A stretch of DNA of 63,803 nucleotides, the filler included, from an uncultured Methanosarcinales archaeon (GTDB taxonomy: Archaea > Nanobdellota > Nanobdellia > Woesearchaeales > GW2011-AR9), in NCBI GenBank assembly GCA_964434885.1. It is 4 parts of 4 records of this genome, joined end to end, with 100 filler letters (N's around TTAATTAATTAA, not from the genome) between each part and the next. Parts side by side here need not be neighbours in the genome. Positions count along the whole stretch, not along the records: positions 34,199 to 49,821 come from CAYSWQ010000018.1; 3 more parts are not named here. The stretch is one strand, 5' to 3'. Made by a program: the position numbers and the translations under genes. Within the stretch, counting starts at the first letter, position 1. Each line of letters opens with the position of its first letter. The notes under the pieces were generated by a model. The model saw only the letters and a program-made list of their open reading frames with translations, was not told where the DNA came from and searched no databases. Shown here piece after piece: positions 19,122 through 58,817 of this stretch.

Positions 19122-19128
19122 TTGGCAA

Positions 19129-34098: not shown

Positions 34099-34198
34099 NN
34101 NNNNNNNNNNNNNNNNNNNNNNNNNNNNNNNNNNNNNNNNNNTTAATTAATTAANNNNNNNNNNNNNNNNNNNNNNNNNNNNNNNNNNNNNNNNNNNN
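34099..34198. other. Artificial contig spacer
   Basis: 44N-TTAATTAATTAA-44N. Confidence 0.97.
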
Positions 34199-34710
34199 TA
34201 AATACCTAATGCTTGTAATCTATATACACTAATATCAATAGAAATTAATAATCCTTCATTTTTCAGCAATGCTGCCATCTTTGTAGTTTTGCTTCCTGGA
34301 GCAGCACACATATCTAAAACTAATTCTCCTGGTTTTGGTCTTAAAACCAATGGTGGAATCATACTAGCTGCCTCTTGAACATAAATCTGTCCTAAATGAT
34401 GCTCCAATAGATTACCTACATCTCTTCGATTACGAAGTTCAACTTTACTTCCTTTCTTATATTCTACTTTTGGACCTTTAACCCAAAATCCTTCTTTACA
34501 CCAAGGAATTGGTTTCAGTTCCCAACCTTTATTTTCAATTCTTTTTTTAATCTCACTAATTTTCCCCTTTAATGTATTAATTCGTATAGAACGATTCAAA
34601 AAACTAAGAGAATGTTTTCTAAATTCTTCCCACTCTGTCAAATTAGTATATCTTTCAACAAATTTATCTTTAAATTTAATTTGTTCTGCATTAGGTAATT
34701 GTTCCAACAT
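34199..34710 (-). CDS. RsmB/NOP2/NSUN family RNA m5C methyltransferase, 3' end cut by the contig end
   Basis: SIRINTLK, GQIYVQEAASMIPPLVL, VLDMCAAPGSKTT; start placed at ATG 34710. Confidence 0.9.
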
Positions 34711-34821
34711 ATTCAAACAAAACTTAATGAGTTTAAAAAAGTTTATCTTAATTATCTTCAGCCATATCAAAACCTATATAAACTCAAATTACTTTCTAAA
34801 CCTATCAAAGAGGTGAATTTA

Positions 34822-35817
34822 ATGGTTAATGTCGCAATCAATGGCTTTGGTAGAATTGGTCGAATGGTTTTCCGAGCTGGTTATCAAGATAAAAAAATAA
34901 ATTTTGTTGCTGTAAATGATTTAACAAGTACTGAAAATTTAGCTTACTTATTAAAATATGATTCTGCTCACAGAAAATTAAAAGATCAAGTAAAACATAC
35001 TAACGACTCTTTAACCATCGGCAAACAAAAAATTAAAGTTTTTGCTGAAAAAGACCCCTCTCAACTTCCTTGGAAAGAACTAAACATAGACATAGTAATA
35101 GAAAGCACGGGTTTCTTCCTAACTAAAGAATTAGCTAGTCAACATCTTAAAGCTGGAGCAAAAAAAGTTTTACTTTCTGCTCCTGCGAAAAGTGAAAACA
35201 TCAAAACTTTTGCCTATGGAATAAATCATCAAAAATATAATAAAAAAACAGATCACATTATTTCTAATGCTTCTTGCACTACAAATTGTTTATCTCCTAT
35301 AGCTTATATTCTAGATAAAAAATTTGGAATCATTTCTGGATTTTTAACTACTACTCATGGATATACTTCCTCACAAAAATTAGTTGATGGACCACATAAA
35401 AAAATGAGACGTGGTCGAGCAGCTGCTCAAAACTTAGTCCCCACTACCACTGGAGCAACATCTGCCACTAGCAAAGTTCTACCTCAATTAAGAGGTAAGA
35501 TGGATGGGATGGCTATGCGTGTTCCATTAATCAGTGGTTCAATTATTGATTTTACCTGTCAATTAAAAAAATCAACAACTATAGAAAAAGTTAATCGGGC
35601 CTTCAAAGAATCTGCTCAAAAAGAATTAAAAAACATCTTAAAATATTCTGAAGAAGAATTAGTTTCTACTGATATTTTAACAGATCCACATTCTGCCATT
35701 TTTGACAGCAAACTAACTCAAGTATTAAACAAAAACACTGTTAAAGTTTTTGCCTGGTATGATAATGAATGGGGCTATTCTTGTCGAATGATCGATATGA
35801 TAAAGTATATGTTTTAA
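34822..35817 (+). CDS. gap: Class I (bacterial-type) glyceraldehyde-3-phosphate dehydrogenase
   Basis: VAINGFGRIGR, SNASCTTNCL active site, WYDNEWGYS; GAGGTGA RBS before ATG 34822. Confidence 0.95.
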   Translation: MVNVAINGFGRIGRMVFRAGYQDKKINFVAVNDLTSTENLAYLLKYDSAHRKLKDQVKHTNDSLTIGKQKIKVFAEKDPSQLPWKELNIDIVIESTGFFLTKELASQHLKAGAKKVLLSAPAKSENIKTFAYGINHQKYNKKTDHIISNASCTTNCLSPIAYILDKKFGIISGFLTTTHGYTSSQKLVDGPHKKMRRGRAAAQNLVPTTTGATSATSKVLPQLRGKMDGMAMRVPLISGSIIDFTCQLKKSTTIEKVNRAFKESAQKELKNILKYSEEELVSTDILTDPHSAIFDSKLTQVLNKNTVKVFAWYDNEWGYSCRMIDMIKYMF

Positions 35818-35819
35818 AT

Positions 35820-37055
35820 TCACCCCAACATCTCTTCAATTCTTAACAATTGATTATACTTGGCAGTTCTTTCTCCCCGACAAGGAGCACCAGCTTTAAT
35901 CATTCCACAACCCAACCCCACAGATAAATCAGAAATAAAAACATCTTCTGTCTCTCCAGAACGATGTGAAACCATCACTTTCCAACCAGCAGCCAAAGCC
36001 AATTTAGCAGCGTCCAAAGATTCTGTTAATGTACCAATCTGATTTACTTTCAACAACAAACAATTACAACTTTTCTCTTTAATTGCTACTTCAATCAATT
36101 CCGAATTAGTTACTGTTAAATCATCTCCTACAATTTGGATTCCACTTTTCTCCCTCAATTTAGCAAAACTTTCAAAATCATTTTCATCAAAAGGATCTTC
36201 CATCGAATAAATCTTATATTTTTTTATTAATTGTAAATAATAATCTAACAATCCTTTTTTACTAAATTTCTTATGTAACTGATAAAAACCTTCTTTTCCC
36301 CTTTTTTCAACATAAAATTCTGAAGCTGCACAGTCCATTGCCAAATCAACTTTTCCAAAATAACCTGCTCTTCTAATCGCCAACCTGATAAGTTCCAATG
36401 CTTCTTCTGCTTTTTTTATTGGTGGAGCAAAACCACCTTCATCTCCCACATTTACTGCATTTTTACCATATTTTTTCTCAATCATTTTCTTCAAAATATG
36501 GTAAACTTCACTTCCAACTCTTACTGCTTCTTTAACTTTTTTCGTCTTAGGAGAAATCATAAATTCTTGAATCGCCAATTTATTTCCGGCGTGTTTTCCA
36601 CCATTAAGTACATTAAAAAAAATCCGTGGTAAACAAACTTCTCTTCCAGATTCCTTAGCCAAATAATCAAATAAGAACTTTTTCTGACAAAAAGATCCTG
36701 CCCTAGCTACAGCCAATGAAACACCTAGAATTGCATTTGCTCCCAATTTCTTTTTATTTTCAGTTCCATCTAAATTAATCATTAACTCATCAATTTTCCT
36801 TTGTTTAGTACAATCTAAACCGATTAATTTAGGAGCAATTTTCTTCTCAACATTTCTAATCGCTTTCTTTACTCCTTTCCCAAAATATTTTTTAGTTCCA
36901 TCTCTCAATTCTAACGCTTCATTAGTTCCAGTAGAAGCACCAGAAGGAACTGCTGCAGAAAAAATTAACCCCTTAACCAAAACATCTACTTCAATCGTGG
37001 GATTACCCCTAGAATCTAAAATTTCTCTAGCTTTAATCTTTCTTATTCTATTCAT
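35820..37055 (-). CDS. eno: Enolase
   Basis: [60 protein letters not shown]. Confidence 0.97.
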
Positions 37056-37109
37056 TTTACCTCTTTTTTAGAAAGATTAACTTTAAAGATTAAATAGTTT
37101 TCTAAAATA

Positions 37110-37760
37110 TTAATCTTTAGGTGGTTTCCATCCAGGTGGTGGATCCCATCCTCCTTCATCTTCAGGTTTCTCAAACAATTCAAAAGTTTTCACTAATTTG
37201 TACCTACACTGGCTTTTTTCCGCTAATAAATCCACCACTAGTTCGTATTTTCCTGGTTTAGATGTAAAACCCATATCAAATTCTCCAATGAAATTATATC
37301 CTTTGTCATTCAAGAATTTTTTGGTTCTATTAGTCTTGGTATGAAATCGCTTGTCATCTTTAAGTACCTTATGAATCAAATATACTTCACCAAAAAGTTG
37401 ATCTATTCCAATGTAAAATGTAAAAAAAACATCAGCCCCCACATCAAATTCGGGCCCTTCTCCCCCACAACCTTTTTCTTTACTCATATTACCACAAAAT
37501 TTAAATTCTTGAGGTTTTAAATTGCAAATGGATTTACTATCTGAATCAGATTCTTGTTTTACTTTCACTGTTTCATCTTTAATCGAAGGAGCATATGGTT
37601 TTCTTCCCGAATATCCAGTTACATTATTTGCCTGGCCTAATTTTCTCTCCAAATTACTACTCGGTATCTTTACAATATTTAATTCTTCTTTACACCCAGA
37701 ATAAGTTAGTATCAACCCCATCAATCCTGCAGCCACAGTTTTTTTAAATTTCGAAAACAT
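37110..37760 (-). CDS. Lipoprotein-like Ig-fold protein, paralog of 42788..43363
   Basis: LILTYSGC lipobox-like; FKFCG...GPEFDVGADV...PGKYELVVDL...FELFEKPEDEGGW. Confidence 0.7.
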   Translation of the reverse strand: MFSKFKKTVAAGLMGLILTYSGCKEELNIVKIPSSNLERKLGQANNVTGYSGRKPYAPSIKDETVKVKQESDSDSKSICNLKPQEFKFCGNMSKEKGCGGEGPEFDVGADVFFTFYIGIDQLFGEVYLIHKVLKDDKRFHTKTNRTKKFLNDKGYNFIGEFDMGFTSKPGKYELVVDLLAEKSQCRYKLVKTFELFEKPEDEGGWDPPPGWKPPKD

Positions 37761-37802
37761 TTACTCTTTAGAAATAACAATTATTTATAAAATTTATCAA
37801 TT

Positions 37803-40127
37803 CTACTTCATTGCCAATCTTATTCTGGCCTCATCTTTTCTAATTTTCGCCAATAGATTTCTTGAAGCTTCCAAATTATATAAATTTGGAGTCAATTTAC
37901 CAGTGATCACATAATCTTTTTTTCTACTTATAATTTTGTTTAAATTAGTCTCACAAGCACTAAAAACCCCTTCTGCATGCTTTTTGCAGGAATCACTAGT
38001 CTGGTAAGCAATATGTTCTCCTTTCTCATTCTTACCCCCATAAATCATTGTATGGCCTAATCTTCTTCGATTCTCATCTCGGTACGGTGCTCCTAATTTA
38101 GTAATCATATCTCCTTTCTTAAATTTATGATCAGAAAAAAACTTATCTAATTGTTTCTTATTAAACTTGCCCACATTAGTCCCACTTTCCTTCATCTCAG
38201 GAATTCTCCCTATCCGAGTATAAGTGTAAGATCCAGGAACATAATGTTTCCCTAAATCTTTAGTATTCCGCAACAAATTATCTTCCCATTTACCAAAACT
38301 TCTTGATGTTCCTTTTACCAAAACCACTTTTGGACCCAAATCAACATCTCCCATTGCTAAACCAATCGCTTCAGAAATATCTGTGCAAACAAAATTAATC
38401 CCCGTTAACCAACCTTCTTTTGGATGATTAGGCCTACTTAATTTACTTCGATGTTCCCCACTATCATAAGGATAACCTTCTAATAATTTAGCATACCACA
38501 CAATATATTCTCTAAACTCTTCTTGATTTTGTGGTCGATCACCATTACTAATCCCAGTATAACCAAAAGGTACTTTTATTAAATCTGCTCTTGCTTTACG
38601 ATCTAAAATAGTAATTGGACCTTTTTCTTTATTTTTCCAGTCCCCTGTCACTTCCATTTGAATTGTATCATAACCACGATAATTCCAAGCCCTTTTATCT
38701 TTCGTACTACCTGTAACTAATGAACCGTCAATCCCTTGGAATAATTTATCATTTTTTAATTCAACTGCCCAATAACCATTATGTATTCTTGCTCTTCCTT
38801 TCAAATCTACAGTCAACTTATCTTTTTTAATATCAATTTTAGCTCGACTATCAGATGATTTTGATGGTTTTACCATCACTTCAAATCTATCATATTGATC
38901 TGTGTTTAGTAAATAAGGTTGGGCGGGAATTCTTGTACCTACAAAAAATTTATTAGCATATGATTTCTTATAATCTTTACCTATTTTTTTATACAAATAT
39001 CTTAACTCATATTTATCAAATAATACTTTCCCTTTCCCTTTCAATTCCAAACCTTCTTTTTTTAACACCAATTGATTTTTCTCCTTTCCAACCTTATCAT
39101 AATTTACTTTCAAATCTCCTTTTACACCAATTCCTCTTAAATAAACCATTCCTTTTTTCTGAGTTTTAATATGGGTAACCTTTCCTTTCTTTAATGTCAC
39201 TATTGCTTTATTTATTTGGTCTAATTCTCCTTTTTTCACTTGCACAGTATATTTTCCAGAATCAATTTTCAGAGTAGTATCTGAAGCTACACTTTCAATA
39301 ACTAATTGTTTCGTCAAAGTCAATTTATCAAAATCAAATGATAAAGAATTAAATACTGGTTTTTCAAAGCAAACTCCACCAATGCATTTTGCTTCCCCTT
39401 TAATTTTACCATTAGAAAAAGTAAAAAATCCCTCGTCAACCAAAAAACTTTTTCCCATTCCTTTTGTGGCTTCTGCTCCAAATTCACTTGTAATCGTTCC
39501 AGAAGACAAATAAAATTTTCTATTCTTCTTCTCCACCTTTCCTTCAAAACTATAATATCGAGTTTGTCCTTTCGGTTGCAAAATTATTTTTCCTTTAGCA
39601 TCAACTTGGAAATTAAATTTATCTTTCCAATCCAATAAATTTATTTTTTGTTTTAATGTAGAAAGATCTCCTTGTTTATAATTCCCAATATCTCCTTTAA
39701 GTTTCAAAGTTACTCCTTGCGCAGCCAAATATTTTACAAAAACTCCTTTGTTATCATTAATATTATTTTTTTTACCTTCGAAAAATTCTTTAGCAATTTT
39801 TTGATCTGCAGTATTCTTAAAAGTCCCTTGATAATAAGAAAAATAAATTGTAGCTAACTCATCATTTGGTTTTTTCAACAAATATGTTCTTCGATTATGT
39901 TGATCTAATCTCAAGAAATTTATAGGAGTAGGTTTACTAACTCTAGCTAAATCAGTTGCAGTTGGATTTGTCAAAAAATTAAAATTATTTGAAGTTGGTT
40001 TCAATTCAAATTGTTTAGCACATTCATATTCACTTTGACAATCAGCATAAACTAAACCGACCACTAACAAGAACACAATTAACCAAAGTTTATATTTCAT
40101 CTTCCCATTCTTTCCAAGTACTTTCAT
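37803..40127 (-). CDS. Large secreted protein with a C-terminal NlpC/P60-like (DUF1287-like) papain-fold domain
   Basis: Signal peptide (probable start MKYKL at 40100); YAKLLEGYPY, FVCTD (catalytic Cys), KKGDMI, GHTMIYGG (His). Confidence 0.65.
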   Translation of the reverse strand: MKVLGKNGKMKYKLWLIVFLLVVGLVYADCQSEYECAKQFELKPTSNNFNFLTNPTATDLARVSKPTPINFLRLDQHNRRTYLLKKPNDELATIYFSYYQGTFKNTADQKIAKEFFEGKKNNINDNKGVFVKYLAAQGVTLKLKGDIGNYKQGDLSTLKQKINLLDWKDKFNFQVDAKGKIILQPKGQTRYYSFEGKVEKKNRKFYLSSGTITSEFGAEATKGMGKSFLVDEGFFTFSNGKIKGEAKCIGGVCFEKPVFNSLSFDFDKLTLTKQLVIESVASDTTLKIDSGKYTVQVKKGELDQINKAIVTLKKGKVTHIKTQKKGMVYLRGIGVKGDLKVNYDKVGKEKNQLVLKKEGLELKGKGKVLFDKYELRYLYKKIGKDYKKSYANKFFVGTRIPAQPYLLNTDQYDRFEVMVKPSKSSDSRAKIDIKKDKLTVDLKGRARIHNGYWAVELKNDKLFQGIDGSLVTGSTKDKRAWNYRGYDTIQMEVTGDWKNKEKGPITILDRKARADLIKVPFGYTGISNGDRPQNQEEFREYIVWYAKLLEGYPYDSGEHRSKLSRPNHPKEGWLTGINFVCTDISEAIGLAMGDVDLGPKVVLVKGTSRSFGKWEDNLLRNTKDLGKHYVPGSYTYTRIGRIPEMKESGTNVGKFNKKQLDKFFSDHKFKKGDMITKLGAPYRDENRRRLGHTMIYGGKNEKGEHIAYQTSDSCKKHAEGVFSACETNLNKIISRKKDYVITGKLTPNLYNLEASRNLLAKIRKDEARIRLAMK

Positions 40128-40875
40128 TCGCTTTATCTAAAGCAAAAGTGAATTTATAATCTTTATCAAAAATAGTCATATAAGAATATCCTTCTCGATT
40201 ATCATAAAATTCTTGGTATTTCAAATCTTCTAAGCAATTCAAACATAACAAACCATTATTTTTTCTATCTTCTACAATTTTTTTTGCTGCTCTATGTATC
40301 TTCTTTAATTTAACTGGATAATTTACTTCTACCTCTCCAGTTTCCCAATAACTATTACCTAAATTAGTTTCTAGTGGATAACTCAAACTCATCACAAAAC
40401 CCAAATCCGTTAATTTGGTTTTTGTTTTAATAGGCCCTTTTTGTTTAATAGAAAAACCTTGTTCCAAAAAAATAGTAAAATTACAACTTTTCTTTAAATT
40501 TTCATTCACATATTTATTAGTCTCTTTTTCAAACACAAATAAATCTGGCACATAATTCTTGTTTTGATAATAATACAAAGGAACTTGGTAAACATTAGAA
40601 AACCAAAAGATACTGTTATTCGGAGCGTTATAATAACCTCCTTGGTTACCATTCCATTCCACTGCATCTTTCAAAACCTTTCGACCACAATTATCCAAAT
40701 ATAATTGAATTGAATTGAATTGCACTGGTTCAACTGGTTGATATTTAGCAGGTGTACTAAACACATACAATCCAAAAGCCATCAAAATAAATATCCCAAT
40801 GATTATGAAAATAGTTACTTGTCCTTTTTTATTTTGTTTTGAGAAAAACAATGCAAATATTTTACTTTTATTCAT
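40090..40875 (-). CDS. Class III (prepilin-type) signal peptide protein
   Basis: NKKG/QVTIFIIIGIFILM; IQLYLDNC...GNQGGYY...VPLYY. Confidence 0.8.
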   Translation of the reverse strand: MNKSKIFALFFSKQNKKGQVTIFIIIGIFILMAFGLYVFSTPAKYQPVEPVQFNSIQLYLDNCGRKVLKDAVEWNGNQGGYYNAPNNSIFWFSNVYQVPLYYYQNKNYVPDLFVFEKETNKYVNENLKKSCNFTIFLEQGFSIKQKGPIKTKTKLTDLGFVMSLSYPLETNLGNSYWETGEVEVNYPVKLKKIHRAAKKIVEDRKNNGLLCLNCLEDLKYQEFYDNREGYSYMTIFDKDYKFTFALDKANESTWKEWEDEI

Positions 40876-40892
40876 TTTACATTAGTTAAAAA

Positions 40893-42800
40893 CTATCTAT
40901 ATTTTCTCGATTCACAAGTTCTAGTTTTAGTATCTGCTCCAGAAAAATGAGCTGGACAAGCCTTATATGTCAAACAATCTTTAGGATTATTTGTCAAAGC
41001 ACATTTATTAGTCCATAAATTCGGTAAAACCATTTTCGGATTTGCATTATTCCACCCAGGAATTTCATTTCCACCAGCTCTCTGCATACAACGATGGACA
41101 AAATGAGTCCGACCCCCTATTTCTGTGGCCCCTTTGTCCTCTTCTCCCACACACATGAAAAATTTAAGCGCCGATTTAACACAAGCTCGATGAGTAGATG
41201 TTCCATCTATCCCTCGCTCTTTTTCTAATATTTTAGGGCTTCCCTTTCCCCCAAACCAACTTTTCCCTTTTCCTCCAGCTACAACTGTCTTAACTGTTTT
41301 TTTCCCATTATCCAAATATTGTAACCACCCTTTTGAATGTTGAACTCGATTAATAACTGCCTGAGCAATAGCTCCTCTTTCTTTAGCTAAATAATCTTGA
41401 CAATCTCTTTCAATTGATAATATCCGAGCCATGTATTCGACATCTTCTAAATAAGCAGCCCCGATATTTTTTTTAATATAATCTTTTATCTGACCAGAAG
41501 TAGATAGTTTATTGATATCTTTTTCAATTTTATCCGGTAAAAGAGCAGTAATCACAACTCCAGGATCTACGTAATGTACTGGAGATGTACTACTTAACTT
41601 CCCATCAAAACTAACTTTCCCAATCGCATATACATTCTTAGGATTCAAATCATCAATCTTAACTTCAGTTGAAGAGTGTAATCTTTTAATGGCCCTACCA
41701 GTATCACTATAAATAAAACCAACATGAGGTAAACCTCTCCATTTTCCCTTACTGAAATATATTGGGTTTTCTGTCCCATCATCCAAAAAAGGTTGCATTT
41801 TACCATTCTTTATTGTGCTAGTAAAAAACAAATCCCCTGGTTTTACAATATCTTTTAATTTTTCATAAGTTCTTTCTTCTGGTTTTAATACCCTGATTTG
41901 ACACCATTTCACGTTTGGATCTTTACATTTTGCATATATTCCACCAACAACATAACCAATTGTTCCTGGCTTAATTCCCCATTTAGTACTTACTACGTGT
42001 CTTACAAATCCCTGACAATCAAAACCACTATCTCGGCAATTAGGTTTTGAACGGGCAGACCCTGGATTTTTTTGACAATTTTTACAATCATCAAAACTAG
42101 TACAAGATGACAATTTATCTGTTGTAAGAATTAAAGAACAAGCCCACCTACAAGTATGTTCTAAAGGCCTAGAAGGATCTGGAGTATTATAATCTGAACC
42201 GCCAGTATAATAATTACATTCTGTTTTACAAGAATTTACAAATTTAGATTTAGGATTCCTATCTAAAATCCCACCTTTACACAAATCACACTTAGCTGAA
42301 TTTTCTGTACATTCACTAGCGCAAGCTTTTTGCATACAATAAAAACATTTAGTCCATCTATTGTTAAAATCTCGAGGATAATCTTGTCCCCCATAAACAT
42401 AAGGTGCCCCTAAAAAGGTTTTCCCATAATTAAGCAACGCTTGATTATTTTTTCCTGAAACTGCACCTCCAGTGATTGGAGTTGTAGTCGAAGTACCTGC
42501 ACCACCACTTTGACCAGCAGCAGCATTCTGACCTGCACCATCTCGACTAGTCGTTCCAGTAGGCTTAACATATTTCTTCCAACTTGGAGGTGTAGTTGTT
42601 GGATCATAATATTGTCCAATATATTTTCCAATACGACTAGCAATTTTCAACCACACTTCATCAATTTCACTCAATGTTACTTGGGTAGAACTACCTGCCA
42701 CACTAGTTGCACCGGGATTGGCTGGAGCATAAACAAAAGGTACAATTAAAACTAAGAAAATTACCAACACCAACAACTGGTAAGTTTTCATGTAGGCCAA
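40893..42800 (-). CDS. Secreted two-domain putative cell-wall hydrolase: NlpC/P60 endopeptidase plus SleB/Hydrolase_2-like lytic transglycosylase
   Basis: GKTFLGAPYVYGG...GFDCQGFVRHV...VKPGDLFF...HVGFI; EDVEYMARILSIE...ERGAIAQAVINRV...TVKTVV. Confidence 0.75.
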   Translation of the reverse strand: MAYMKTYQLLVLVIFLVLIVPFVYAPANPGATSVAGSSTQVTLSEIDEVWLKIASRIGKYIGQYYDPTTTPPSWKKYVKPTGTTSRDGAGQNAAAGQSGGAGTSTTTPITGGAVSGKNNQALLNYGKTFLGAPYVYGGQDYPRDFNNRWTKCFYCMQKACASECTENSAKCDLCKGGILDRNPKSKFVNSCKTECNYYTGGSDYNTPDPSRPLEHTCRWACSLILTTDKLSSCTSFDDCKNCQKNPGSARSKPNCRDSGFDCQGFVRHVVSTKWGIKPGTIGYVVGGIYAKCKDPNVKWCQIRVLKPEERTYEKLKDIVKPGDLFFTSTIKNGKMQPFLDDGTENPIYFSKGKWRGLPHVGFIYSDTGRAIKRLHSSTEVKIDDLNPKNVYAIGKVSFDGKLSSTSPVHYVDPGVVITALLPDKIEKDINKLSTSGQIKDYIKKNIGAAYLEDVEYMARILSIERDCQDYLAKERGAIAQAVINRVQHSKGWLQYLDNGKKTVKTVVAGGKGKSWFGGKGSPKILEKERGIDGTSTHRACVKSALKFFMCVGEEDKGATEIGGRTHFVHRCMQRAGGNEIPGWNNANPKMVLPNLWTNKCALTNNPKDCLTYKACPAHFSGADTKTRTCESRKYR

Positions 42801-43363
42801 CCCCCTTCATCTTCAGGCAACTCAAACAATTTAAACTTCTTCACCAAGGTAGATTTCTTATTCAAAACTGCATTAGAAATCAATAATTCTAAAGTATATT
42901 CTCCTGCTGGATCAGACAAATCCATTGAAACATAATCTTTAAATAATATCTTTTCAGTTTTTGCATTGCTTAATTTATCAAAATAAAAATTATCTGTATT
43001 ATCAGCTTCTAACAAAACTTTTCCTTTAGCATCCTTAATTCTATAATTCTCAACTAGTTTAACCTTTCCTTCATAAACTGTACTTTCCACCACAAACATA
43101 AAATGAACATCTGCCCCTACATCAAATTCGGGTCCTTGTCCCAAACAAGAGAAATTAGAAGAGATAGATCCACAAAATTTGAAATCTTTAATGGCTAAAC
43201 TACCTTCTCTTTGATAAGGAATAAATTCTGTATTCAATACTGATTCAGTACTTTCTTTAACACTCAATATTCCTGTTTTAATTAACAACAACATTCCTGC
43301 ACTAGTTAAAAGAATTACTCCTAAGATAACCAATACACTAACCGCAATTCCTCCTTTTTTCAT
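42788..43363 (-). CDS. Membrane-anchored Ig-fold protein with a class III-like leader, paralog of 37110..37760
   Basis: MKKG/GIAVSVLVILGVILL; FKFCG...GPEFDVGADV...PAGEYTLEL...FKLFELPEDEGGW. Confidence 0.7.
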   Translation of the reverse strand: MKKGGIAVSVLVILGVILLTSAGMLLLIKTGILSVKESTESVLNTEFIPYQREGSLAIKDFKFCGSISSNFSCLGQGPEFDVGADVHFMFVVESTVYEGKVKLVENYRIKDAKGKVLLEADNTDNFYFDKLSNAKTEKILFKDYVSMDLSDPAGEYTLELLISNAVLNKKSTLVKKFKLFELPEDEGGWPT

Positions 43364-43365
43364 TT

Positions 43366-46300
43366 TTATTTACACGAAATAAAACCAAACCATTTGTTAC
43401 TATTTAGATTGATACTACGTTTCCAAACAGTATTATCATAATTTCCACTTATTCCTTTAGCACTGTTCCCATTAATTTCAGTTATAAAATCACAATGGGC
43501 TTTTTTCCAATTTGGTGGAACTGGCAAATTGTTATAATCTATTGGACATCCATCAGATCTACATTCACAAACCAAATCCCCAACTTTAATTTTATTTTTC
43601 TCAGACATCGGATAAGTAGTACAACTACTAGATTCACCTTGTTGAACTCTTTGAAAATATCTTGTATGGGAACAATTGAATGGAAAATCAGAAACTCCTG
43701 CTTCTTGATAAATAAATGAAATGAATGCTGCTGACCAAGCATCCTTGGTGGGGCTTGCGGTTGGTGCTCCACAAGCAGTATAATACTCTTTAATCCGGTT
43801 CTGCATTACATTTTCTTTTTTACTCCCTTTTCCAAATAACACCCATTCTTTATTCACTTTTTCAATAATCTTTTTGGACAATGTTTGCGTAGTTGAAGAA
43901 GTTGATGAAGTGACTGGACCACCAATAGGAGTAGGAGTAGCTATTGGACCAGAAGAACCACTTCCTGATCCAGAAGATGTAGTTCCTTTATTCTTTCCAA
44001 ATTTCTCACTTACCAAACTTAAATACATATGAATCTTTTTATACTCATTCGAATTCTTAACTCTCGAATTATAATTAATACTTCGCGTTGTCAAAAATAA
44101 ATCTGCAAAGGCACCTGCTTCTTTATTATTACCTTGCATAATTTTAGCAGCAATATAATAATACACAGCTAAAGCATCAACAACACCATAATTTTTATCA
44201 GTATTACTTTTCGCCATTACTGTTTGAGCACTCCTAATCAAACTAGTATAATCATTAGCTTTCCACAAGGAGTAAAAACTACTTGTAATTCCCCCTGTCC
44301 CAGGAATCGCTTGGAAATTATGTTGAATTCTTATTTCCGCCGTATGACTTGGTTTCCCAAAAGTAGTAGTCAAAGGAGTAGTTGTTCCAGAACAACTATC
44401 TTTAATTGGGTGTCTTACTTCTACTTGTAATTGTAATTTTTTAATGTTACTACTTATACTAGTCGCTGTAGATTTAGCATTGTAAGTACAAATATTAATA
44501 CTCTTACCACTAGCAATACTAGTTTTAATTGGACTAGTAATCCTCTGACCATTAAACTTAAACTTAAATTCTTCAATATCTTTAGAACTCAATCGATAAT
44601 TATTATTTTTAGTAATTCTTCTATTGGTATCCACATTATAAGTATTCTTGTCGTCTATTGTCATTGCACTCGGATTATCTACCGACAAAATATATTTAGT
44701 ACTATCTTGAGTATCTTTCTTCAAATCAAATTTAACACTAGAATATCCAGTAACTCCCCAGATGTTCTCAGTTTTATAAGTTCCACAATCCCCAGTAGAA
44801 CTTACTTGTAAATTACTAGTAGTGCCCCCCAATAAAAGATCGGTAACAGTCATCAAATTAATTTCTGGAGTAGTTGTCCTAGATAATGTTGATGCTGCAA
44901 TAGGAATAATCATCGGAGTTCCCATCCCAGTTAATTGAATTTTCAAACATTGTTTTTTACCATCACTAAAAATATGTGGGCGAATAGTAATTTGGTCTCC
45001 CTTCTTCAAATAGTTGTAAGAAGCATCTCCATCACATTGAATCCATTTCCCAGTGTATTTATTCAAACATTCTACATAAGGTGCCTGTAAATGAGTATTA
45101 CCCATCTTATTAAAAAAGTTAGATAATTGTGGACAACTAAACCTACCTGTTTTACTATCTGCTTGACAAGAAACTAAAGGCTTACCTGAAACATCAGTGA
45201 TTGGAGCATAATAAACTCCTTTGTTTCCTTCAATATGAGAAGCTTCAAAACAATTTTTTGGTTCTTCAAAACGATCTAATTCAATTTCCAATACCACATG
45301 ATCATAAACATAAGGTTTAGGTACAATATGGGGTGATTTCAAAGGCACACTGACATAACTACCAGTCTCAACTCCTCGAACACTAGTAAACAAAGAATGT
45401 TCCATTTCTGGATATTTCTGATTAATTCCTAAACATGGACAAGAGCCAGGAGTAGCACAATCAATATTTTCTTTACCTAAATCTGCTGCCGTAACACATT
45501 TTAATTTAACTTCATACTTCCTTATCTTACATCCAGGGAAAATACTTGCCCCAATACGATAACTATATGTTGGCGCTCCTTTAATTGGATCATAAGAAAC
45601 TAATTCTCTTTCTGCCGGTACAATCAACGCACTAGTTTTCATCGGAGTGCGATAAGCTGCATCAGTTAAAAAATCTAAACCATAAGGCCAATCATAACCA
45701 AATGCTGCCAAACAAACATTTCTAATTATTCCTTGTGAACCTGCTTTAAACATCTCATTCAATTTAGCATTACCATATTCTTGACTTAAATCACTCATTG
45801 AAGTATCTAAAGCGTCTTTAACTGCACTCAATCCAAATCCAACTCCTGCTTCAACAGCAGTTTGATCTTCTCCCCTTCCAATATCTAAAAAAGGTAAAGG
45901 TGAACATCCCTTGGAAGCATAAGCAAATAACTTATACAATAAACCACAAACTGCTTGACTAAATAATTCTTTACAAGTCCCAGCATTTTTGATTCCTGTA
46001 TATTTAGCTTCAATCAAACAATTTCTTACTCCCTTTAGTACACTATTTAACATCCTCAATCGGTTATAGATTCCACTTAAACATAAAGTTTGGAACGCTG
46101 CTAAATGAGAAGTAAAAGGATTTATTTCTGCAATTGTTTTTTTAGTTTTAGTCATATCTAAAACATGGTCTAATCCAAACGCTGCCGATAAATCACGGCC
46201 TTTATAATATCTCCACGTTGGATAACATAAACCAGAACTTCCACCATTACAAGTACTAGGATCTCCTCCAGTTTCTCGAAACAACTGTGCCTGTCGATAA

Positions 46301-49300
46301 CTCCATTCTTGTTTCACTGAAGTTTGTTTCTCTCCTTTCTTTCTTTCTTCTCCCTTACAAACACAAACACTAACTTCTTTCGTCGGATTACTTGTTCCTG
46401 TCGTAGTTCCTCCAGTTTTTTCAACAACGGTCTTTGTACTACCATCTGGATTTGTAATTTTAGTAGTTGTTTCAATTACTTTTCCCCCTGCTGTTCCTTC
46501 TGCTTGTGGAAAACAATCCTTTGTATAACCAGCCACATAATGATTCTCTTCTTTAATCTCTTTTTTAGGCTTTTCAGTATTCATATCAATAGGAGCACAT
46601 CTAGCTTTTGTAAATCCTTTTCTTTGTTGACATAAATCAGTACAAGTAATATCTCTACTAACAATATAATTCTTAGCTCCTTTTGGTTGATAAGCTAACA
46701 AAGTATCAGAAGTGAAATCATTATTCCCTATTGATCCTCCTGCTGTATTACCAATTCGAGACAATTTCCAAATTCTAGTCTTCGTGTAAGCCTCAGTCCT
46801 CTCAGCAGCAGTCATTTTGATATAATAAATATTCTCTTTACCATCAATATAACAAGTATTTTTCCCAATCTCTTGCAAAGTAGTTTTGAAACTAGCTACG
46901 TCAGTAAGTCTAGTAAATTTACTTGGATTCTTTTCCCAATAACCTTGACAATTCTTCAATTCCCTTAAAGGAACTCCCATTCCAGTAAATGCCCCACAAG
47001 CTTGTTCAGCTAATTTGGCTTGCATCACTTTATCCTCATCAGCATCTTCAGTCCATTTCGCCGGAGCTTTATGACAATAAAAACGATCACAAGACCATCT
47101 TAATGCCGTATTTAACACTGATTCTGCTTTCCAAGCCCCTGCCGTCATACTACATTTCTTTTCTAATTCTAAATCTTCACGTTTACCTTTTACATATGCT
47201 TCTGGTAAATTAGCATTTGACTTTCCTTTAACTTTGTCAAAACTATCTAATGTTTTTTTCAAAAATAATTCCTCTGGCTTAACACACTTCTTAGCATCAT
47301 CATTTTCTGCCTTATCTAAAAAAGGTTCTAATTTAGAAATAAATTTTCGATATATTTGAGTAACCAATCGTAAAGCCATAGATACTCCACAACCAACCCC
47401 CACTACCAACATTGCCTTTTCAATATAAGGTAAAATAGTATCAATTGCATGGGTTGTTTTATTCAATGCATCTGTTAACCCATCAACCAAAGGTCCAGGC
47501 ATCAAATCTTTACTTTCTAAAGGAATATCTACAAAATATCCTAAATTAATACAACTAGTTTGAGTTTTAGTTTCACCCCAACCACCTTTAGCATTTCTTT
47601 CTTGAAAAGCTAATTTAATTTGTAATGGAAATTTTAATTGTCTTTTCTGAAAATCTTGCCATAAATTAGGATCTTTTTTTGTTAATTCACTAGTTCTACC
47701 CAATGTTGCTTGTAGATAATATGCAGTTTTATCTGGACTACCAACGGGCACAATATTTCTCGGAAAAATTTTACAACTAATATTAAAATCTCCTTGCTTA
47801 AGCATACCTGGAGTACAAGCTCGATCCACAGTCATAGACATAATCCGATAAGGTTGTTCTCCTTGTTTAGCTGCCACTGCCGAACCAGAATATTTTAATT
47901 TCAACATTGAACTAATAGTTTGTCTTCCATCATCCAACAAAGTAGGTTGTAATCGATAAGGTAATTGATACTCAATCATCGGATCAACATTAAATGCATA
48001 ATCAGCAGAATAACAATTATAAATTAAAATCGTTTTTCTCGCGGCAAAATTAGTCACTCTTCCTAATTGATCTTCTGCTAAAATATAAATTTCAAAAGAT
48101 TTTTGAGTTTGTCCCCTGATAATATCTGCTGCTGGCAAAACTACATCTACTAAACTAGATGGAATATGTCTTGGACTTAAATCTTTCAAAGAAATTGGAG
48201 TTCTTTCAAAATTAACATTAGAAAAAATAAACTTTCCTTGTTTATCTGCTGTCACTACTGCTCGCGCCTTCTTAAAATCTGGAGCCCGACTATAAACTTC
48301 CCGCGAAAAAACATAAAGATATACTTTCGCTCCTGGTTTAGTCAACCCAGTAATATCTGATTTTGCTCGACCTTCATAAAAAGTTGTTCCTCCCACTACT
48401 GTTGCTGTGACAGTTGGAACTTTGGTATCGGAAAATACTTGTAAAGATAAAATATTCTTTCTACCACCAATATCTTTAGCACTAATGTCAATATCGTTTT
48501 GTCCATCTCTTAAACTTACTTCCTTGGAAAAGTTATTAGTTTGTACTTTGTAAGCACTTCGATTATTAACAAAAATTTCCAATGAAACATTTTTATTAAC
48601 TGTTCCTTCTAATTTAACTTTAGTTTGATTAACTCTAGCTAATACTGGTTTCAATGTAATTTTTGGTTTCTTTAAATCCGCATAAACACTAAATTTCTTA
48701 CTACTTTTTTGACCTAATTTATCTTTCACTTCCAATTCAATCCGATTAACTACATCACTACTCAAACTTACTTTTGAAAACAAAAACGATTTATTCACTA
48801 CTGCTTTTGTCGAAGTAGTAGCACCATTAACTTTCAATTTAACTTGTACTCCTGTATCTGTAGTTCCAGAAATATTAATCTCGGAAGAAGCCACACTACT
48901 TGGTAAACTAACAACTATTTTTGGCAAAGTTTGTGTTTTATTCCCTCCCAATACTACACTTTTTTTGGCCAATGTTGTAAATGAATAAAAACTACCTGAA
49001 TTATTATCACTTTCATTCCCACTTTTAACTTCATAAAAATATTTAGTGGAATTTAATAAACCACTCAAAGAAAGGCTATGGTTTTCAACTTTTGTAAAAT
49101 CGCTTTGAATACTTAATTTACTCAAATTTGTTCCATAATGAACATAACTATCTGCACTTTCATTGGTTTTCCAGTTAATCACTGCACCACTTCCAGTAAC
49201 ATTAACAGCTTGGATATCCGAAAAAGAAATTGCTTGAACTAGTGGCCAATTCAAAAAAAGCATAATCACTAACCAAACCTGAAAATTTCTATTCCAATGC

Positions 49301-49314
49301 TTTTTTTCATTCAT
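43366..49314 (-). CDS. Giant (1982 aa) secreted protein: FN3/Ig-like domains, Cys-rich core, Ser/Thr/Gly linker, C-terminal DUF2272 (CHAP-like) domain
   Basis: Signal peptide; AVINWKTNE...VHYG...LSGL..STKYFYEV FN3; Ig-like repeats; tip AWSAAFISFIYQEAG..FP...SHTRY...KVGDLVCECR...AHCDFIT...GISGNYDNTV. Confidence 0.75.
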   Translation of the reverse strand: MNEKKHWNRNFQVWLVIMLFLNWPLVQAISFSDIQAVNVTGSGAVINWKTNESADSYVHYGTNLSKLSIQSDFTKVENHSLSLSGLLNSTKYFYEVKSGNESDNNSGSFYSFTTLAKKSVVLGGNKTQTLPKIVVSLPSSVASSEINISGTTDTGVQVKLKVNGATTSTKAVVNKSFLFSKVSLSSDVVNRIELEVKDKLGQKSSKKFSVYADLKKPKITLKPVLARVNQTKVKLEGTVNKNVSLEIFVNNRSAYKVQTNNFSKEVSLRDGQNDIDISAKDIGGRKNILSLQVFSDTKVPTVTATVVGGTTFYEGRAKSDITGLTKPGAKVYLYVFSREVYSRAPDFKKARAVVTADKQGKFIFSNVNFERTPISLKDLSPRHIPSSLVDVVLPAADIIRGQTQKSFEIYILAEDQLGRVTNFAARKTILIYNCYSADYAFNVDPMIEYQLPYRLQPTLLDDGRQTISSMLKLKYSGSAVAAKQGEQPYRIMSMTVDRACTPGMLKQGDFNISCKIFPRNIVPVGSPDKTAYYLQATLGRTSELTKKDPNLWQDFQKRQLKFPLQIKLAFQERNAKGGWGETKTQTSCINLGYFVDIPLESKDLMPGPLVDGLTDALNKTTHAIDTILPYIEKAMLVVGVGCGVSMALRLVTQIYRKFISKLEPFLDKAENDDAKKCVKPEELFLKKTLDSFDKVKGKSNANLPEAYVKGKREDLELEKKCSMTAGAWKAESVLNTALRWSCDRFYCHKAPAKWTEDADEDKVMQAKLAEQACGAFTGMGVPLRELKNCQGYWEKNPSKFTRLTDVASFKTTLQEIGKNTCYIDGKENIYYIKMTAAERTEAYTKTRIWKLSRIGNTAGGSIGNNDFTSDTLLAYQPKGAKNYIVSRDITCTDLCQQRKGFTKARCAPIDMNTEKPKKEIKEENHYVAGYTKDCFPQAEGTAGGKVIETTTKITNPDGSTKTVVEKTGGTTTGTSNPTKEVSVCVCKGEERKKGEKQTSVKQEWSYRQAQLFRETGGDPSTCNGGSSGLCYPTWRYYKGRDLSAAFGLDHVLDMTKTKKTIAEINPFTSHLAAFQTLCLSGIYNRLRMLNSVLKGVRNCLIEAKYTGIKNAGTCKELFSQAVCGLLYKLFAYASKGCSPLPFLDIGRGEDQTAVEAGVGFGLSAVKDALDTSMSDLSQEYGNAKLNEMFKAGSQGIIRNVCLAAFGYDWPYGLDFLTDAAYRTPMKTSALIVPAERELVSYDPIKGAPTYSYRIGASIFPGCKIRKYEVKLKCVTAADLGKENIDCATPGSCPCLGINQKYPEMEHSLFTSVRGVETGSYVSVPLKSPHIVPKPYVYDHVVLEIELDRFEEPKNCFEASHIEGNKGVYYAPITDVSGKPLVSCQADSKTGRFSCPQLSNFFNKMGNTHLQAPYVECLNKYTGKWIQCDGDASYNYLKKGDQITIRPHIFSDGKKQCLKIQLTGMGTPMIIPIAASTLSRTTTPEINLMTVTDLLLGGTTSNLQVSSTGDCGTYKTENIWGVTGYSSVKFDLKKDTQDSTKYILSVDNPSAMTIDDKNTYNVDTNRRITKNNNYRLSSKDIEEFKFKFNGQRITSPIKTSIASGKSINICTYNAKSTATSISSNIKKLQLQVEVRHPIKDSCSGTTTPLTTTFGKPSHTAEIRIQHNFQAIPGTGGITSSFYSLWKANDYTSLIRSAQTVMAKSNTDKNYGVVDALAVYYYIAAKIMQGNNKEAGAFADLFLTTRSINYNSRVKNSNEYKKIHMYLSLVSEKFGKNKGTTSSGSGSGSSGPIATPTPIGGPVTSSTSSTTQTLSKKIIEKVNKEWVLFGKGSKKENVMQNRIKEYYTACGAPTASPTKDAWSAAFISFIYQEAGVSDFPFNCSHTRYFQRVQQGESSSCTTYPMSEKNKIKVGDLVCECRSDGCPIDYNNLPVPPNWKKAHCDFITEINGNSAKGISGNYDNTVWKRSINLNSNKWFGFISCK

Positions 49315-49821
49315 TTAATCTTCGGCCCCAATACTGCTGCATTTATTCTAGAATACTTTTCTAATCCACCAATAAAACTATATAATTCCATATTGTCTTT
49401 GAAATTATCTTTAGTTAATACATTAAATGTAATCTCTTCCGCTGATTTCAATTTATCCCAATCCACAGTCCAATTACCTTGATATCCACCCAAAATAGTT
49501 TTATCATCCATCAAATAAATTTCTAATTGATATTCATAATCAGTACCTGCTAAAAAATTCAAAGCACTTTGATCTAAAACACTTTTACTTAATCCTGGAG
49601 ATATAACTAATGTTTCTTGATGTTTACCCCAAGATTCTTTACTACGAGTGATTTTAATTGATACTGTTTCCTTATTACTCATTTGTTCTGTAGAACCAAG
49701 ACTTTTAGCTTCTAAACCAACTAATGTATTGAATTTATTTTTCACCACTTTAATTTTCTTAGCTGGAAATTTTAATAGTTGAATCAATTCTAAATCTACA
49801 CTTTTAGAATCATTGGCAACT
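49311..49821 (-). CDS. C-terminal part of a surface protein, 5' end cut by the contig end
   Basis: Frame is open to the gap; LNFLAG..YEYQLEIYL....ILGGYQGNWTV; ATGA overlap with the giant gene. Confidence 0.65.
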
Positions 49822-49921
49822 NNNNNNNNNNNNNNNNNNNNNNNNNNNNNNNNNNNNNNNNNNNNTTAATTAATTAANNNNNNNNNNNNNNNNNNNNNNN
49901 NNNNNNNNNNNNNNNNNNNNN
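49822..49921. other. Artificial contig spacer
   Basis: 44N-TTAATTAATTAA-44N. Confidence 0.97.
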
Positions 49922-50163
49922 TGTCCATCAGACTGAGTAATTACATTGATAACATGAGGAGTTCTTTGGTTTTGAAACAAGTAACAAGAACCAGGCTCTA
50001 GTAAATTCTTGCGACATTTTTTTTTATAATCTTGAAACATTTCTGGAAAATACATTTTAAATTGCTGTGCTATGCCTGCATTCATTTTTCCTTGATTATT
50101 ACAACCTTGAACTAAGTGGTTTGAAGAAGTAGAAAATAAATCTCCATTTTTATATATGATCAT
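49922..50163 (-). CDS. Macrodomain protein (DarG/TARG1-like ADP-ribosyl glycohydrolase), 3' end cut by the contig end
   Basis: MIIYKNGDLF...LVQGCNNQGKMNAGIAQQFKMYFPEMFQDYKKKC...LEPG...VINVITQ. Confidence 0.85.
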
Positions 50164-56513: not shown

Positions 56514-58817
56514 ATGGTAGGTCCAAAAGAAAAAAAGTGTTTTGAATATGATGTATATCATGAAGGAGAGAATAAAGTTTTGAAGGTTTATTGTGAAAAA
56601 TGTACTTTTCCTCCTTCGATTGAAGATAGTTCCTTGTGTTTATCAAAAACCATTGATCTATTACAACAAGTTTCTGGAGTAACAATTATAATTATTTCTC
56701 AGCGTCGTGAATATGAATATGATTATTCTCAAGTTTCTTTATTGGTTGAGTTAGCTCAGTTTTATAGAGCAGTAAACAAAGAACAGAGATATTCACATTC
56801 GGCTTTAGTTACTGATCCTTTGCATGAAAGATATTTGAAATCTAGTTATGCTGTATTTCAGAGAATAATTTCTCATAAATTAAAAGAAGACCCAATTCGT
56901 GCTTATGTTGAGTTAAAAAGGTTGTTGAGGAGAGAAAAGATTAAACTTAATAATTTGATCGATGAAAGACATCAAACCAGTCAAAATAGATTTATTGGAG
57001 TTGTACATGAAGTTATTGATACTTTAGAAAAAACTAAATTTATTACTTTAATAACTCCACACTTACATAATTATGAAGTAGGTACTCGAGAAATTTATAA
57101 GAACGTATTCCATCCTTCCACTAGACCAGATTTCATGTATACAAAGTTAATTGCTGAGTATCCAGAGGGAGAAATCGCTGAAAGTTATAATTTTGGAGAT
57201 GGAGTAGAAAAAGCAGATGTAACTTTGTTTAATTTTCCAGATAATATTAAAACATTATATCATCTTAATCCTCCAGAATTTAAATTTACAGAAGATGAAT
57301 ATGGTTTGTTGGATGATGCTAAAAGAATTATGGCGGAGCATAAACCTACACAAGAAGAGTTTGTTAATCCACAAAGAATGAGGGAAGTTTTTTTTAGTAT
57401 TGGACAAGATTTGATAAGAGATTTAGCTAAACAAAAAAGTATTCCTTTAGAAGATCAACAAGTAGAACAATTGGCACAATCTCTATTAAGATACACAGTT
57501 GGTTTTGGTTTGATTGAGGTTTTGTTGGCAGATCCAAAAGTACAAGATGTAAATATCAATTCACCAAATGGAGAATTACCTATTTTTTTAGTTCATCAAG
57601 ATTATGGTGATTGTTATACTAATATTTACCCAACTAAACAAGAAGTTGATTCTTGGGCAACTAAATTAAGATTGATTTCAGGTAGGCCGCTCGATGAAGC
57701 AAACCCTATTTTAGATACTGAGTTAGAAATAACTAGTTTTACTTCAAGGGTTTCAGCAGTAACTGCCCCTTTGAATCCGATGGGTTTGGCTTTTTCTTTT
57801 AGAAGACATAGAGATCATCCTTGGACATTTCCATTGTATATGCAACCTAAAGTAAAGATGATGAATGCTTTAACAGCCGGATTATTGTCTTTTTTGATTG
57901 ATAATAATGCAACGATGTTGATTGCAGGAACAAGAAGTTCTGGAAAGTCTAGTTTACTTGGTTCTGTATTAGTGGAGATAATGCGTCGTTCTAGGATTTT
58001 GACAATTGAAGATACTTTTGAACTGCCAGGTAATTCATTACGAGAATTGGGTTTTAATATTGAGAGTTTGAAAGTTGGTTCGGCTTTATCAACAAAAGAA
58101 GCAGGTTCAGAAGTAGATGCTTCAACAGGAATTAGATCTACCTTGCGTTTAGGAGATTCGGCTTTGTTTGTGGGTGAAGTGAGAAGTAAAGAAGCCATTT
58201 CACTTTTTGAAGCCATGCGAGTAGGAGCTGCGGCCAACGTGGTAGCAGGAACGATTCACGCTGCTTCTCCTTATGGCGTATATGACCGGGTAGTTAATGA
58301 TATTGGGGTTCCGAAAACTTCATTTAAGGCAGTAGATGTTATTATTCAGTGTAATCCAGTTAAATCTGCTTCTGGATTGAAGAAAGTGAAAAGAGTATTA
58401 GGAATCTCTGAAGTGAGAAAACAATGGGAAGAAGATCCATTGAAAGAAGGGGCTTTTGTTGATTTGATGAAATATAACTCCAAAACAGATGAAATGGAAA
58501 TTACTGATGATTTAATTAATGGTAATTCTGAGATTTTGAAAAGAATGGCAGGGAACATTAGAGAATTTGCAGGAGATTGGGATGCAGTTTGGAATAATAT
58601 TCAGTTAAGGGCAGATTGTAAACAAGCAATTGTAGATATTCATGAACAAGTAAAAGATGATTCTTTATTGGAGGCAGAATTTGTAATTAAGTGTAATGAT
58701 AGGTTTCATTTGTTAACAGACAAAGTACAAGAAGAAGTTGGAAGTATGGATGCAGAAAGGATTTTGTTTGAGTATAAAGAATGGTTGAAAGGAGAAGTGA
58801 AGAAGAGGAAGATGTGA
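56514..58817 (+). CDS. Type II/IV secretion (type IV filament) assembly ATPase, TadA/FlaI/VirB11-like
   Basis: Walker A GTRSSGKS, TIEDTFEL Asp box, LRLGD..LFVGEVR Walker B, GTIHA His box. Confidence 0.92.
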   Translation: MVGPKEKKCFEYDVYHEGENKVLKVYCEKCTFPPSIEDSSLCLSKTIDLLQQVSGVTIIIISQRREYEYDYSQVSLLVELAQFYRAVNKEQRYSHSALVTDPLHERYLKSSYAVFQRIISHKLKEDPIRAYVELKRLLRREKIKLNNLIDERHQTSQNRFIGVVHEVIDTLEKTKFITLITPHLHNYEVGTREIYKNVFHPSTRPDFMYTKLIAEYPEGEIAESYNFGDGVEKADVTLFNFPDNIKTLYHLNPPEFKFTEDEYGLLDDAKRIMAEHKPTQEEFVNPQRMREVFFSIGQDLIRDLAKQKSIPLEDQQVEQLAQSLLRYTVGFGLIEVLLADPKVQDVNINSPNGELPIFLVHQDYGDCYTNIYPTKQEVDSWATKLRLISGRPLDEANPILDTELEITSFTSRVSAVTAPLNPMGLAFSFRRHRDHPWTFPLYMQPKVKMMNALTAGLLSFLIDNNATMLIAGTRSSGKSSLLGSVLVEIMRRSRILTIEDTFELPGNSLRELGFNIESLKVGSALSTKEAGSEVDASTGIRSTLRLGDSALFVGEVRSKEAISLFEAMRVGAAANVVAGTIHAASPYGVYDRVVNDIGVPKTSFKAVDVIIQCNPVKSASGLKKVKRVLGISEVRKQWEEDPLKEGAFVDLMKYNSKTDEMEITDDLINGNSEILKRMAGNIREFAGDWDAVWNNIQLRADCKQAIVDIHEQVKDDSLLEAEFVIKCNDRFHLLTDKVQEEVGSMDAERILFEYKEWLKGEVKKRKM

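Follow-up and report, generated by a model that had tools for sequence, protein, structure and literature searches.

We propose that the giant protein described here is a conserved part of a Woesearchaeota surface apparatus with an optional C-terminal display site, and that its DUF2272 tip, captured from a pool of wall enzymes, acts on the bacterial wall, a reading that we consider probable, if well short of certain. The first-pass annotation saw in the same protein an arrangement typical of polymorphic toxins, with an exchangeable effector at the end of a long stalk. Taken as a whole, the locus looks like a surface device by which bacteria are gripped or opened, and not like a classic toxin system; antagonism is still conceivable, though it would be directed across domains.

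The window, that is, the whole stretch of 63,803 nucleotides that was analysed (filler included), consists of four contigs (C16, C17, C18, and C23), artificially joined by runs of N with a 12-nt spacer, and the open reading frames at 34147-34770 and 49870-50163 extend into these joins. The gene for the giant protein is found on contig C18 (window positions 34199-49821). The source genome, of 1.07 Mb and 92% complete, is that of a Woesearchaeota-like organism, and the homologs are labelled Woesearchaeota or Nanoarchaeota by their sources. An assembly chimera at the tip junction was considered and is ruled out, as contigs of two runs, from two studies, span the linker junction with zero differences (X2, 43597-44193; X6, 43762-44072), X2 originating from the same study as the possible source run; thus the fusion of tip and core is not chimeric. 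Base composition is also similar between the two, with GC of 0.333 and GC3 of 0.212 for the tip versus 0.331 and 0.181 for the core. Elsewhere in the window (18327-23224), a run of genes for proteins with Cys-rich or CARDB-like domains (Stig1/MXAN_6577-like, acidic double-disulfide repeat) likely represents another surface-protein cluster.

Table 1. Positions of the features discussed, in window coordinates.
Feature	Position	Strand	Evidence or remark
Giant protein, predicted secreted surface protein, 1982 aa	43366..49314	-	ORF, Pfam, homologs
End domain of core, aa ~1669-1776	43987..44310	-	Conserved in alignment of relatives
Ser/Thr/Gly/Pro linker (GTTSS...SSTT), aa 1777-1809	43888..43986	-
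DUF2272 tip, aa 1810-1982, CHAP/NlpC-P60-like	43366..43887	-	Pfam, CHAP alignment, AF2 model
Ser1861 codon	43732-43734	-
His1940 codon	43495-43497	-
Asn1958 codon	43441-43443	-
c1, 3' end, truncated by contig end (~650 aa in relatives)	49311..49821	-	c1 HMM, E 2e-39
c0, 191 aa, pilin-like leader (KKGG) and hydrophobic helix, beta-sandwich	42788..43363	-
Cargo gene, 635 aa, two places downstream of giant	40893..42800	-
EIDxVW module in cargo, ~45 aa	42558..42701	-
Short c1 paralog, 261 aa, KKGQ leader	40090..40875	-	c1 HMM, E 4e-14
Secreted protein, 774 aa, C-terminal NlpC/P60-like Cys...His motifs	37803..40127	-	Motifs read by eye
c0 paralog, 216 aa, lipoprotein-like leader	37110..37760	-	39% identity over 137 aa, E 3e-22
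FlaI/TadA-like secretion ATPase (T2SSE), on another contig	56514-58817		Pfam
Gene after the ATPase, 725 aa, no family match	58875-61052
N joins	17387-17486, 34099-34198, 49822-49921		Neighbourhood across joins artificial

The giant protein begins with a signal-peptide-like N-terminus and continues through FN3-like (aa 40-114) and Ig-like (aa 226-296) domains, a Cys-rich core, an end domain and a linker to the DUF2272 tip. Of the long Ig- and Cys-rich stalk envisaged in the first-pass annotation, the richness in cysteines stands (40 Cys in the core) and the repetitive stalk does not: Pfam recognizes one FN3-like and one Ig-like domain, and the core beyond the latter is non-repetitive. Most of this core carries no annotation; neither a HINT domain nor a release protease was found in it in Pfam and NCBIfam scans, it has no usable match in the ESM Atlas, and the genes of the locus have no match in NCBIfam. 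The end domain of the core is probably helical, judging by its sequence, and it is after this domain that every type of tip is appended.

As to the tip, its assignment as DUF2272/CHAP-like is now well supported. Pfam DUF2272 (PF10030) matches aa 1818-1971 with an E value of 6.4e-19 and 68.9 bits, far above the cut-off of 27, covering profile positions 8-166 of 191, and the tip searched alone scores E 7e-21. The motifs on which the assignment was originally based are all present (WSAAFIS, GDLVCECR, HCD, and GNYDNTV) and align with those of CHAP in order. The tip has no match to Pfam CHAP (PF05257), a profile matched weakly by 9 of the 23 aligned DUF2272 rows. An AF2 model of the tip is of high confidence (pLDDT 95.6, pTM 0.91), and the order of the elements in it would fit the NlpC/P60 fold. 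Searches of PDB sequences with the tip and with its alignment returned nothing meaningful, the comparison by hhalign of the DUF2272 alignment with a canonical NlpC/P60 tip was not significant, and PHROGs returned one weak endolysin match (E 0.005). DUF2272 is described in PMC10318531 as a mostly proteobacterial, papain-like family of the NlpC/P60-CHAP-amidase cluster, in which Ser replaces Cys and His is kept; the Ser-for-Cys substitution is thus already published, with the activity termed speculative there. The tip resembles this family in Pfam score, in the substitution and in the retained His, and it differs in being archaeal, in being fused to a surface protein of 1.8 kaa, and in having six extra Cys (eight in total, versus two in the bacterial-type rows). 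It is 35-42% identical to the DUF2272 domains of cargo proteins (see below; E down to 5e-38), and in a DUF2272 tree it is placed among archaeal-type rows (89/89), with neither a sister nor the exact donor resolved. The fusion itself is known from one lineage only: no second one was present among 18 matches (longer tip-bearing proteins, 301-2000 aa), and DUF2272 is found on no other giant among 114 family or 301 order genomes.

An alignment with two phage CHAP lysins (Pfam CHAP E values of 7e-9 and 4e-9) pairs WSAAFIS with WCATF, HCDFI with HVGIV, and ISGN with IEGN, so that Ser1861, as anticipated from the motif, aligns with the catalytic Cys, His1940 with the catalytic His, and Asn1958 with the conserved Asn. 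In a CHAP-type fold, the nucleophile is expected at the start of a helix and the His at the start of a strand, and in the AF2 model Ser1861 opens a helix and His1940 opens a strand. The tip is thus like the CHAP endolysins in its ordered W-[C/S]-A-x-F, GD, H, and G-N motifs and, as modelled, in the placement of these two residues. It differs from them in the replacement of Cys by Ser, in the lack of the His-orienting Glu before G-N (ExN or EGN in CHAP, ISGN in the tip, IGGN in the DUF2272 family), and in the Cys-Asp that follows the His, where CHAP has Val-Gly. The Ser, the His and the Asn are invariant in all 23 DUF2272 rows, archaeal and bacterial-type alike. The Cys of HCD had been considered as a relocated nucleophile and is rejected: Cys1941 occupies the position of the structural Val in the CHAP HVG and is not conserved, with Thr taking its place in P0054 and Ser in a homolog from a Caulobacter phage, and therefore such a relocation is unlikely. 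The activity of Ser variants has been tied to an acidic pocket (PMC10318531); the tip is net basic (23 K+R versus 16 D+E), which speaks against catalysis, if weakly, whole-domain charge being a crude proxy for the pocket.

The core is distributed in the way expected of a structural gene and unlike a patchy toxin. Its C-terminal half is encoded in 104 of 114 family genomes (64 of 67 of those of good quality), by one gene per genome, barring split genes and one genome with two. Weaker matches are found in other families of the order (17/24), and outside the order nothing was matched in a sample of 251 genomes of the class, all matches of the core profile being to same-order genomes. In three assemblies (L086, L153, and L134) the gene is in two frames, through a frameshift or a stop.

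The tips, on the other hand, vary. A census was made of 100 loci fetched from 99 relatives (four of the 103 matching relatives, G030, G094, G084, and G088, are not part of it); four of these loci are incomplete, and 96 giants have a complete end. Sixty-three of the latter end within 40 aa past the core, 27 carry small Cys-rich modules, three carry binding tips (SH3-like or lectin-like domains), and three carry enzyme-like tips, and as many of the loci are congeneric (14 from one clade), these counts overstate independence. The enzyme-like tips are an M74 murein endopeptidase (L105), an endolysin-type lysozyme (L073, PHROG E 1e-25), and an alpha/beta-hydrolase-like domain recognized from motif only (L111), as is that of P0077. 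One database homolog, P0023, ends in a phage-tail lysozyme (E 1.5e-5, below cut-off). Among distant giants, tips of the GH73, SLT (with a peptidoglycan-binding domain), VanY and trypsin (P0149) types are found, in a set of 24 hand-picked for long tails, so that four enzyme matches in 24 are not a rate. Of 20 loci from other families, two have enzyme tips, M15 and a canonical, Cys-containing NlpC/P60. Across the order, at least eight unrelated enzyme families thus occur at the tips of giants, and not every captured enzyme is wall-specific, considering the alpha/beta-hydrolase-like and trypsin tips. On a core tree, built without L086, whose giant is frameshifted, and without loci having <560 aa of core, six enzyme-tipped giants are scattered and require six separate changes; since shuffled tip labels also give six, this number speaks of scatter and independent origins, not of selection. 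The nearest relative (L031, identical to P0002), 77% identical to the giant studied, shares the linker until about aa 1800, where the sequences diverge, and ends in a 45-aa Cys module. The genome of this relative, G077, has two giants, of which one (L052) groups with its genus and the other is L031, whose contig may reflect mis-binning or transfer. Overall, the tip is exchangeable, as was originally suggested, and tabulating the C-terminal domains of the homologs revealed different tips instead of a common one, but it is optional and rare, as 90 of the 96 complete relatives have neither an enzyme nor a recognizable binding domain.

The gene order around the giant is conserved. The gene immediately upstream is c1 in 82 loci of the family, and the same holds for 18 of 21 loci outside it; in the source genome, the 5' part of c1 is probably on contig C31 (HMM match E 1e-191). 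Its product has a class-III-like (pilin-type) leader, KKGQ, and class III leaders of the KKG[Q/G/A]-hydrophobic type were read by eye on proteins of the locus. The c0 protein is modelled as a helix (residues 3-29) and nine strands (pLDDT 88), and its matches in the ESM Atlas are unnamed clusters only, mostly from Nanobdellota. Farther downstream, the 774-aa protein has no family match and no homolog in 100 family loci, and its end returned nothing meaningful from PDB sequences; flanked by the c1 paralog and the c0 paralog, its gene looks like part of a second, partly duplicated module. We infer that the proteins of the locus are secreted and assembled as one apparatus. Of 40 genomes of the family, 39 encode a prepilin peptidase and only four encode T2SSF; neither was found in the source genome (92% complete), so a true pilus would be no more than a possibility. 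The 725-aa gene that follows the secretion ATPase could encode a divergent assembly platform.

The hypervariable element of the locus is the cargo gene. In the source genome, it encodes a signal peptide, an EIDxVW module, a split NlpC/P60-like domain with Cys and His (E 1e-4, below cut-off), and a SleB/Hydrolase_2-like domain, its C-terminal part matching four cargos that have Hydrolase_2 matches (E 1e-25 to 1e-47). Scanning of 85 of 91 candidate cargos, from 78 loci, at Pfam thresholds of E 1e-4 and 1e-3 (some matches being below curated cut-off), revealed a peptidoglycan-cleaving match in 60 of the 85 cargos and 57 of the 78 loci, in 40 domain combinations. The most frequent domains are SLT (22), Amidase_2 (11), DUF2272 (11), M15 (9), M23 (5) and phage lysozyme (5), followed by Hydrolase_2 (4), VanY (3), M74 (3), GH73 (1), and GH25 (1), and the cargos also have GDSL esterases, deacetylases, DUF218 and phosphoesterases. 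In some, such as those of L071 and L095, DUF2272 is the sole Pfam wall-enzyme family. An FGE-sulfatase-like domain is found in 14 cargos, often next to DUF2272 or lysozyme (loci L041-L048, L058, L064, L065, L080, L082, L089, L091, and L099). One cargo, of 3116 aa (L124:865-10215), has SLT, M15/VanY, amidase, and EF-hand matches along with the EIDxVW tag, and resembles the transglycosylase proteins of ‘up to 3,000 aa’ described in PMC8204110.

Tips and cargos draw on a common pool of domains. The lysozyme and M74 tips of giants have close cargo homologs (E 1e-45 and 1e-49), and close homologs of the DUF2272 tip and of one type of Cys module are found in the cargos of other genomes; judging from these similarities, the enzyme tips look like repeated captures from the cargo pool. 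DUF2272 is encoded in 16 of 114 family genomes, in 11 of them in the cargo slot, in one on a tagged cargo on a split contig, and in one on the giant, the remaining ones being on a pilin-like or a small stand-alone protein; in two other genomes of the order (of 301), it is on pilin-like proteins. Fusions of DUF2272 to pilin-like proteins with KKG leaders, in pilin-like operons, are seen in other Woesearchaeota (L159:799-1884, L160:856-2025, and L175:2547-3542), and a bacterial-like DUF2272 is found on a short contig with viral- or foreign-looking genes (L174, contig C6 of G014). As a control, SLT is found at the locus in 26 of 60 SLT-bearing family genomes; the locus is therefore one of the main places for wall enzymes, but not the only one. 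Another wall enzyme of the source genome, of 550 aa, starts with a region resembling a coiled coil and also has an internal twin-Arg-like segment and an Amidase_2 domain (E 3e-18; L167:769-2421, contig C27 of G000).

According to the model that we favor, the giant would be a conserved structural component of the surface apparatus, encoded behind the pilin-like c1, with the locus continuing into the pilin-like c0 and then into a secreted cargo with a shifting set of bacterial-wall enzymes. Past the end domain and the flexible linker, the C-terminus of the giant would be an optional display site, mostly empty or carrying small disulfide modules, and occasionally receiving a domain of the cargo pool through recombination. 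The DUF2272 tip would be a CHAP-fold peptidase, most likely cleaving the stem peptides of peptidoglycan via the Ser1861-His1940 pair, and at the point of contact with a bacterium, be it host or prey, it may loosen the wall locally or serve as an anchor in it. Tip and core taken together are likely to act as a hydrolase or binder of peptidoglycan that is tethered to a conserved apparatus on the cell surface.

Alternatively, the tip may have kept the CHAP fold but lost all or nearly all catalysis, and bind stem peptides instead; it would then serve as an adhesin, as would the SH3, lectin and Cys-module tips of relatives, and the cutting would be left to the cargos. The loss of both the Cys and the Glu would agree with this, as would the prevalence of Cys or binding tips among the relatives (30 of 96, versus three enzyme-like), the Cys-His NlpC/P60 already present in the adjacent cargo, and the existence of a related, inactive peptidoglycan-binding family, DUF1175 (PMC10318531). 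We nevertheless consider it rather unlikely, as the invariance of Ser, His and Asn suits catalysis better than decay, DUF2272 is in some cargos the only wall-enzyme family recognized, and papain-like enzymes with a Cys-to-Ser change retain some activity (PMC10318531). It is also conceivable that the wall enzymes scavenge peptidoglycan from dead cells, or that shuffling in a recombination-prone locus gave rise to the fusion, which is tolerated although the tip has no special role. Restriction of the fusion to one lineage fits here, the esterases, deacetylases and phosphoesterases of the cargos would suit full digestion, and use of necromass has been proposed for DPANN (PMC11537232). However, the tip is intact, with all the invariant residues kept and a confident model, wall-enzyme tips arose repeatedly on the giant across the order, and an enzyme tethered to a conserved protein linked with pilins is better suited to contact than to diffusion, and we regard this explanation as improbable.

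Polymorphic toxins combine a conserved N-terminal carrier and unrelated C-terminal effectors with immunity proteins and cassettes. The giant is like these systems, which are touched on in PMC6393860, in the first two traits: it has a long secreted N-terminal part and a flexible linker, its relatives carry unrelated tip folds, exchanged even between proteins 77% identical, and DUF2272 itself clusters with the T6SS amidase Tse1 (PMC10318531). It differs in the remaining traits and in a presumably cross-domain target. Most homologs have no toxic tip (enzyme tips being rare, as counted above), the gene is near-universal and single-copy, and the gene that follows belongs to the c0 family in 88 of the 94 loci that have a following gene, under all tip classes, which excludes c0 as an immunity protein. 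No orphan toxin-immunity cassettes were detected, the core and the tip having a single tblastn match each in the 92%-complete genome, no cassette-type repeats of the core end are present on contig C18, and the scans for a release protease were negative in a core that, as mentioned, is mostly unannotated. The archaeon has no peptidoglycan, and a wall enzyme in such a cell requires no immunity protein, so the missing immunity gene alone is a weak counterpoint. With cassettes missing as well, this is not a classic polymorphic toxin, and the census largely refutes the strict version of that proposal, in which a stalk delivers one of several interchangeable toxic tips in competition, backed by immunity and spare cassettes; we find it very improbable.

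One further element may connect the giant with its cargos. The EIDxVW module is the only element common to the mosaic cargos, found in 82 neighbour proteins of 76 loci by a profile built from the same proteins, and in the source genome it occurs once, in the cargo. In two distant giants, L147 (E 3e-6) and P0117, it is placed directly behind the end domain; the end domain could be recognized in four of 80 distant giants, and the two giants with EIDxVW are among those four. In the L147 genome, c0 is not adjacent, a weak score being obtained for the c0 leader region only. These fusions, small in number, suggest that the tag binds the end domain of the giant. We tentatively entertain, as a possibility somewhat on the doubtful side, a cellulosome-like anti-wall machine, with the giant as a scaffold, the end domain as a dock, and EIDxVW as the tag loading interchangeable multi-enzyme cargos. 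If so, an enzyme fused straight to the dock end, as in the giant studied, would be a shortcut, its tip would be the first functional CHAP-fold enzyme with a serine nucleophile, and the bacterial host of each lineage could be read from the enzyme set of its cargo.

Genes for wall degradation in Woesearchaeota and large secreted transglycosylase proteins, with bacterial hosts proposed, are already published. One example is fam00969 (PMC8204110), a lineage-specific family of large extracellular murein transglycosylase proteins of Woesearchaeota and Pacearchaeota, with a median length of 1947 aa, a signal peptide in 79% and GH23 in 53% of members (81% of those from Pacearchaeota), proposed to attach to and degrade bacterial walls. 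Compared by family summary only, the giant is like fam00969 in large size, signal peptide and lineage restriction, and the giants differ in that SLT is found on 1 of ~70 scanned with Pfam, versus a mostly GH23 family, and in that the core profile, in the sample of 251 genomes of the class, matches the same order only. Another example is the secreted, shuffled, bacteria-derived archaeal peptidoglycan hydrolases that kill bacteria and are prominent in Nanoarchaeota (PMC12352652), as described in a survey that required a catalytic and a known wall-binding domain. The cargo and tip enzymes are likewise secreted, shuffled and bacteria-derived; however, the surveyed genes are patchy and plasmid-biased, and those of the locus have a constant place in the chromosome, next to conserved surface genes. 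A search of the literature, with few subscription papers covered, returned nothing on the locus, on tip exchange or on the EIDxVW tag.

Single enzyme families have raised the question of whether Woesearchaeota live on bacteria (PMC8204110, PMC9723730). The tip alone is a rare decoration, and the surrounding locus matters more: fixed and family-wide, it combines a conserved scaffold with a slot sampling nearly every wall-cleaving class. It also offers small, soluble domains for assays that require no culture of the archaeon, among them the 170-aa tip, on which it can be tested directly whether CHAP domains with Ser in place of Cys are enzymes. As circumstantial evidence for life on bacteria, such a fixed locus is stronger than single enzyme families.
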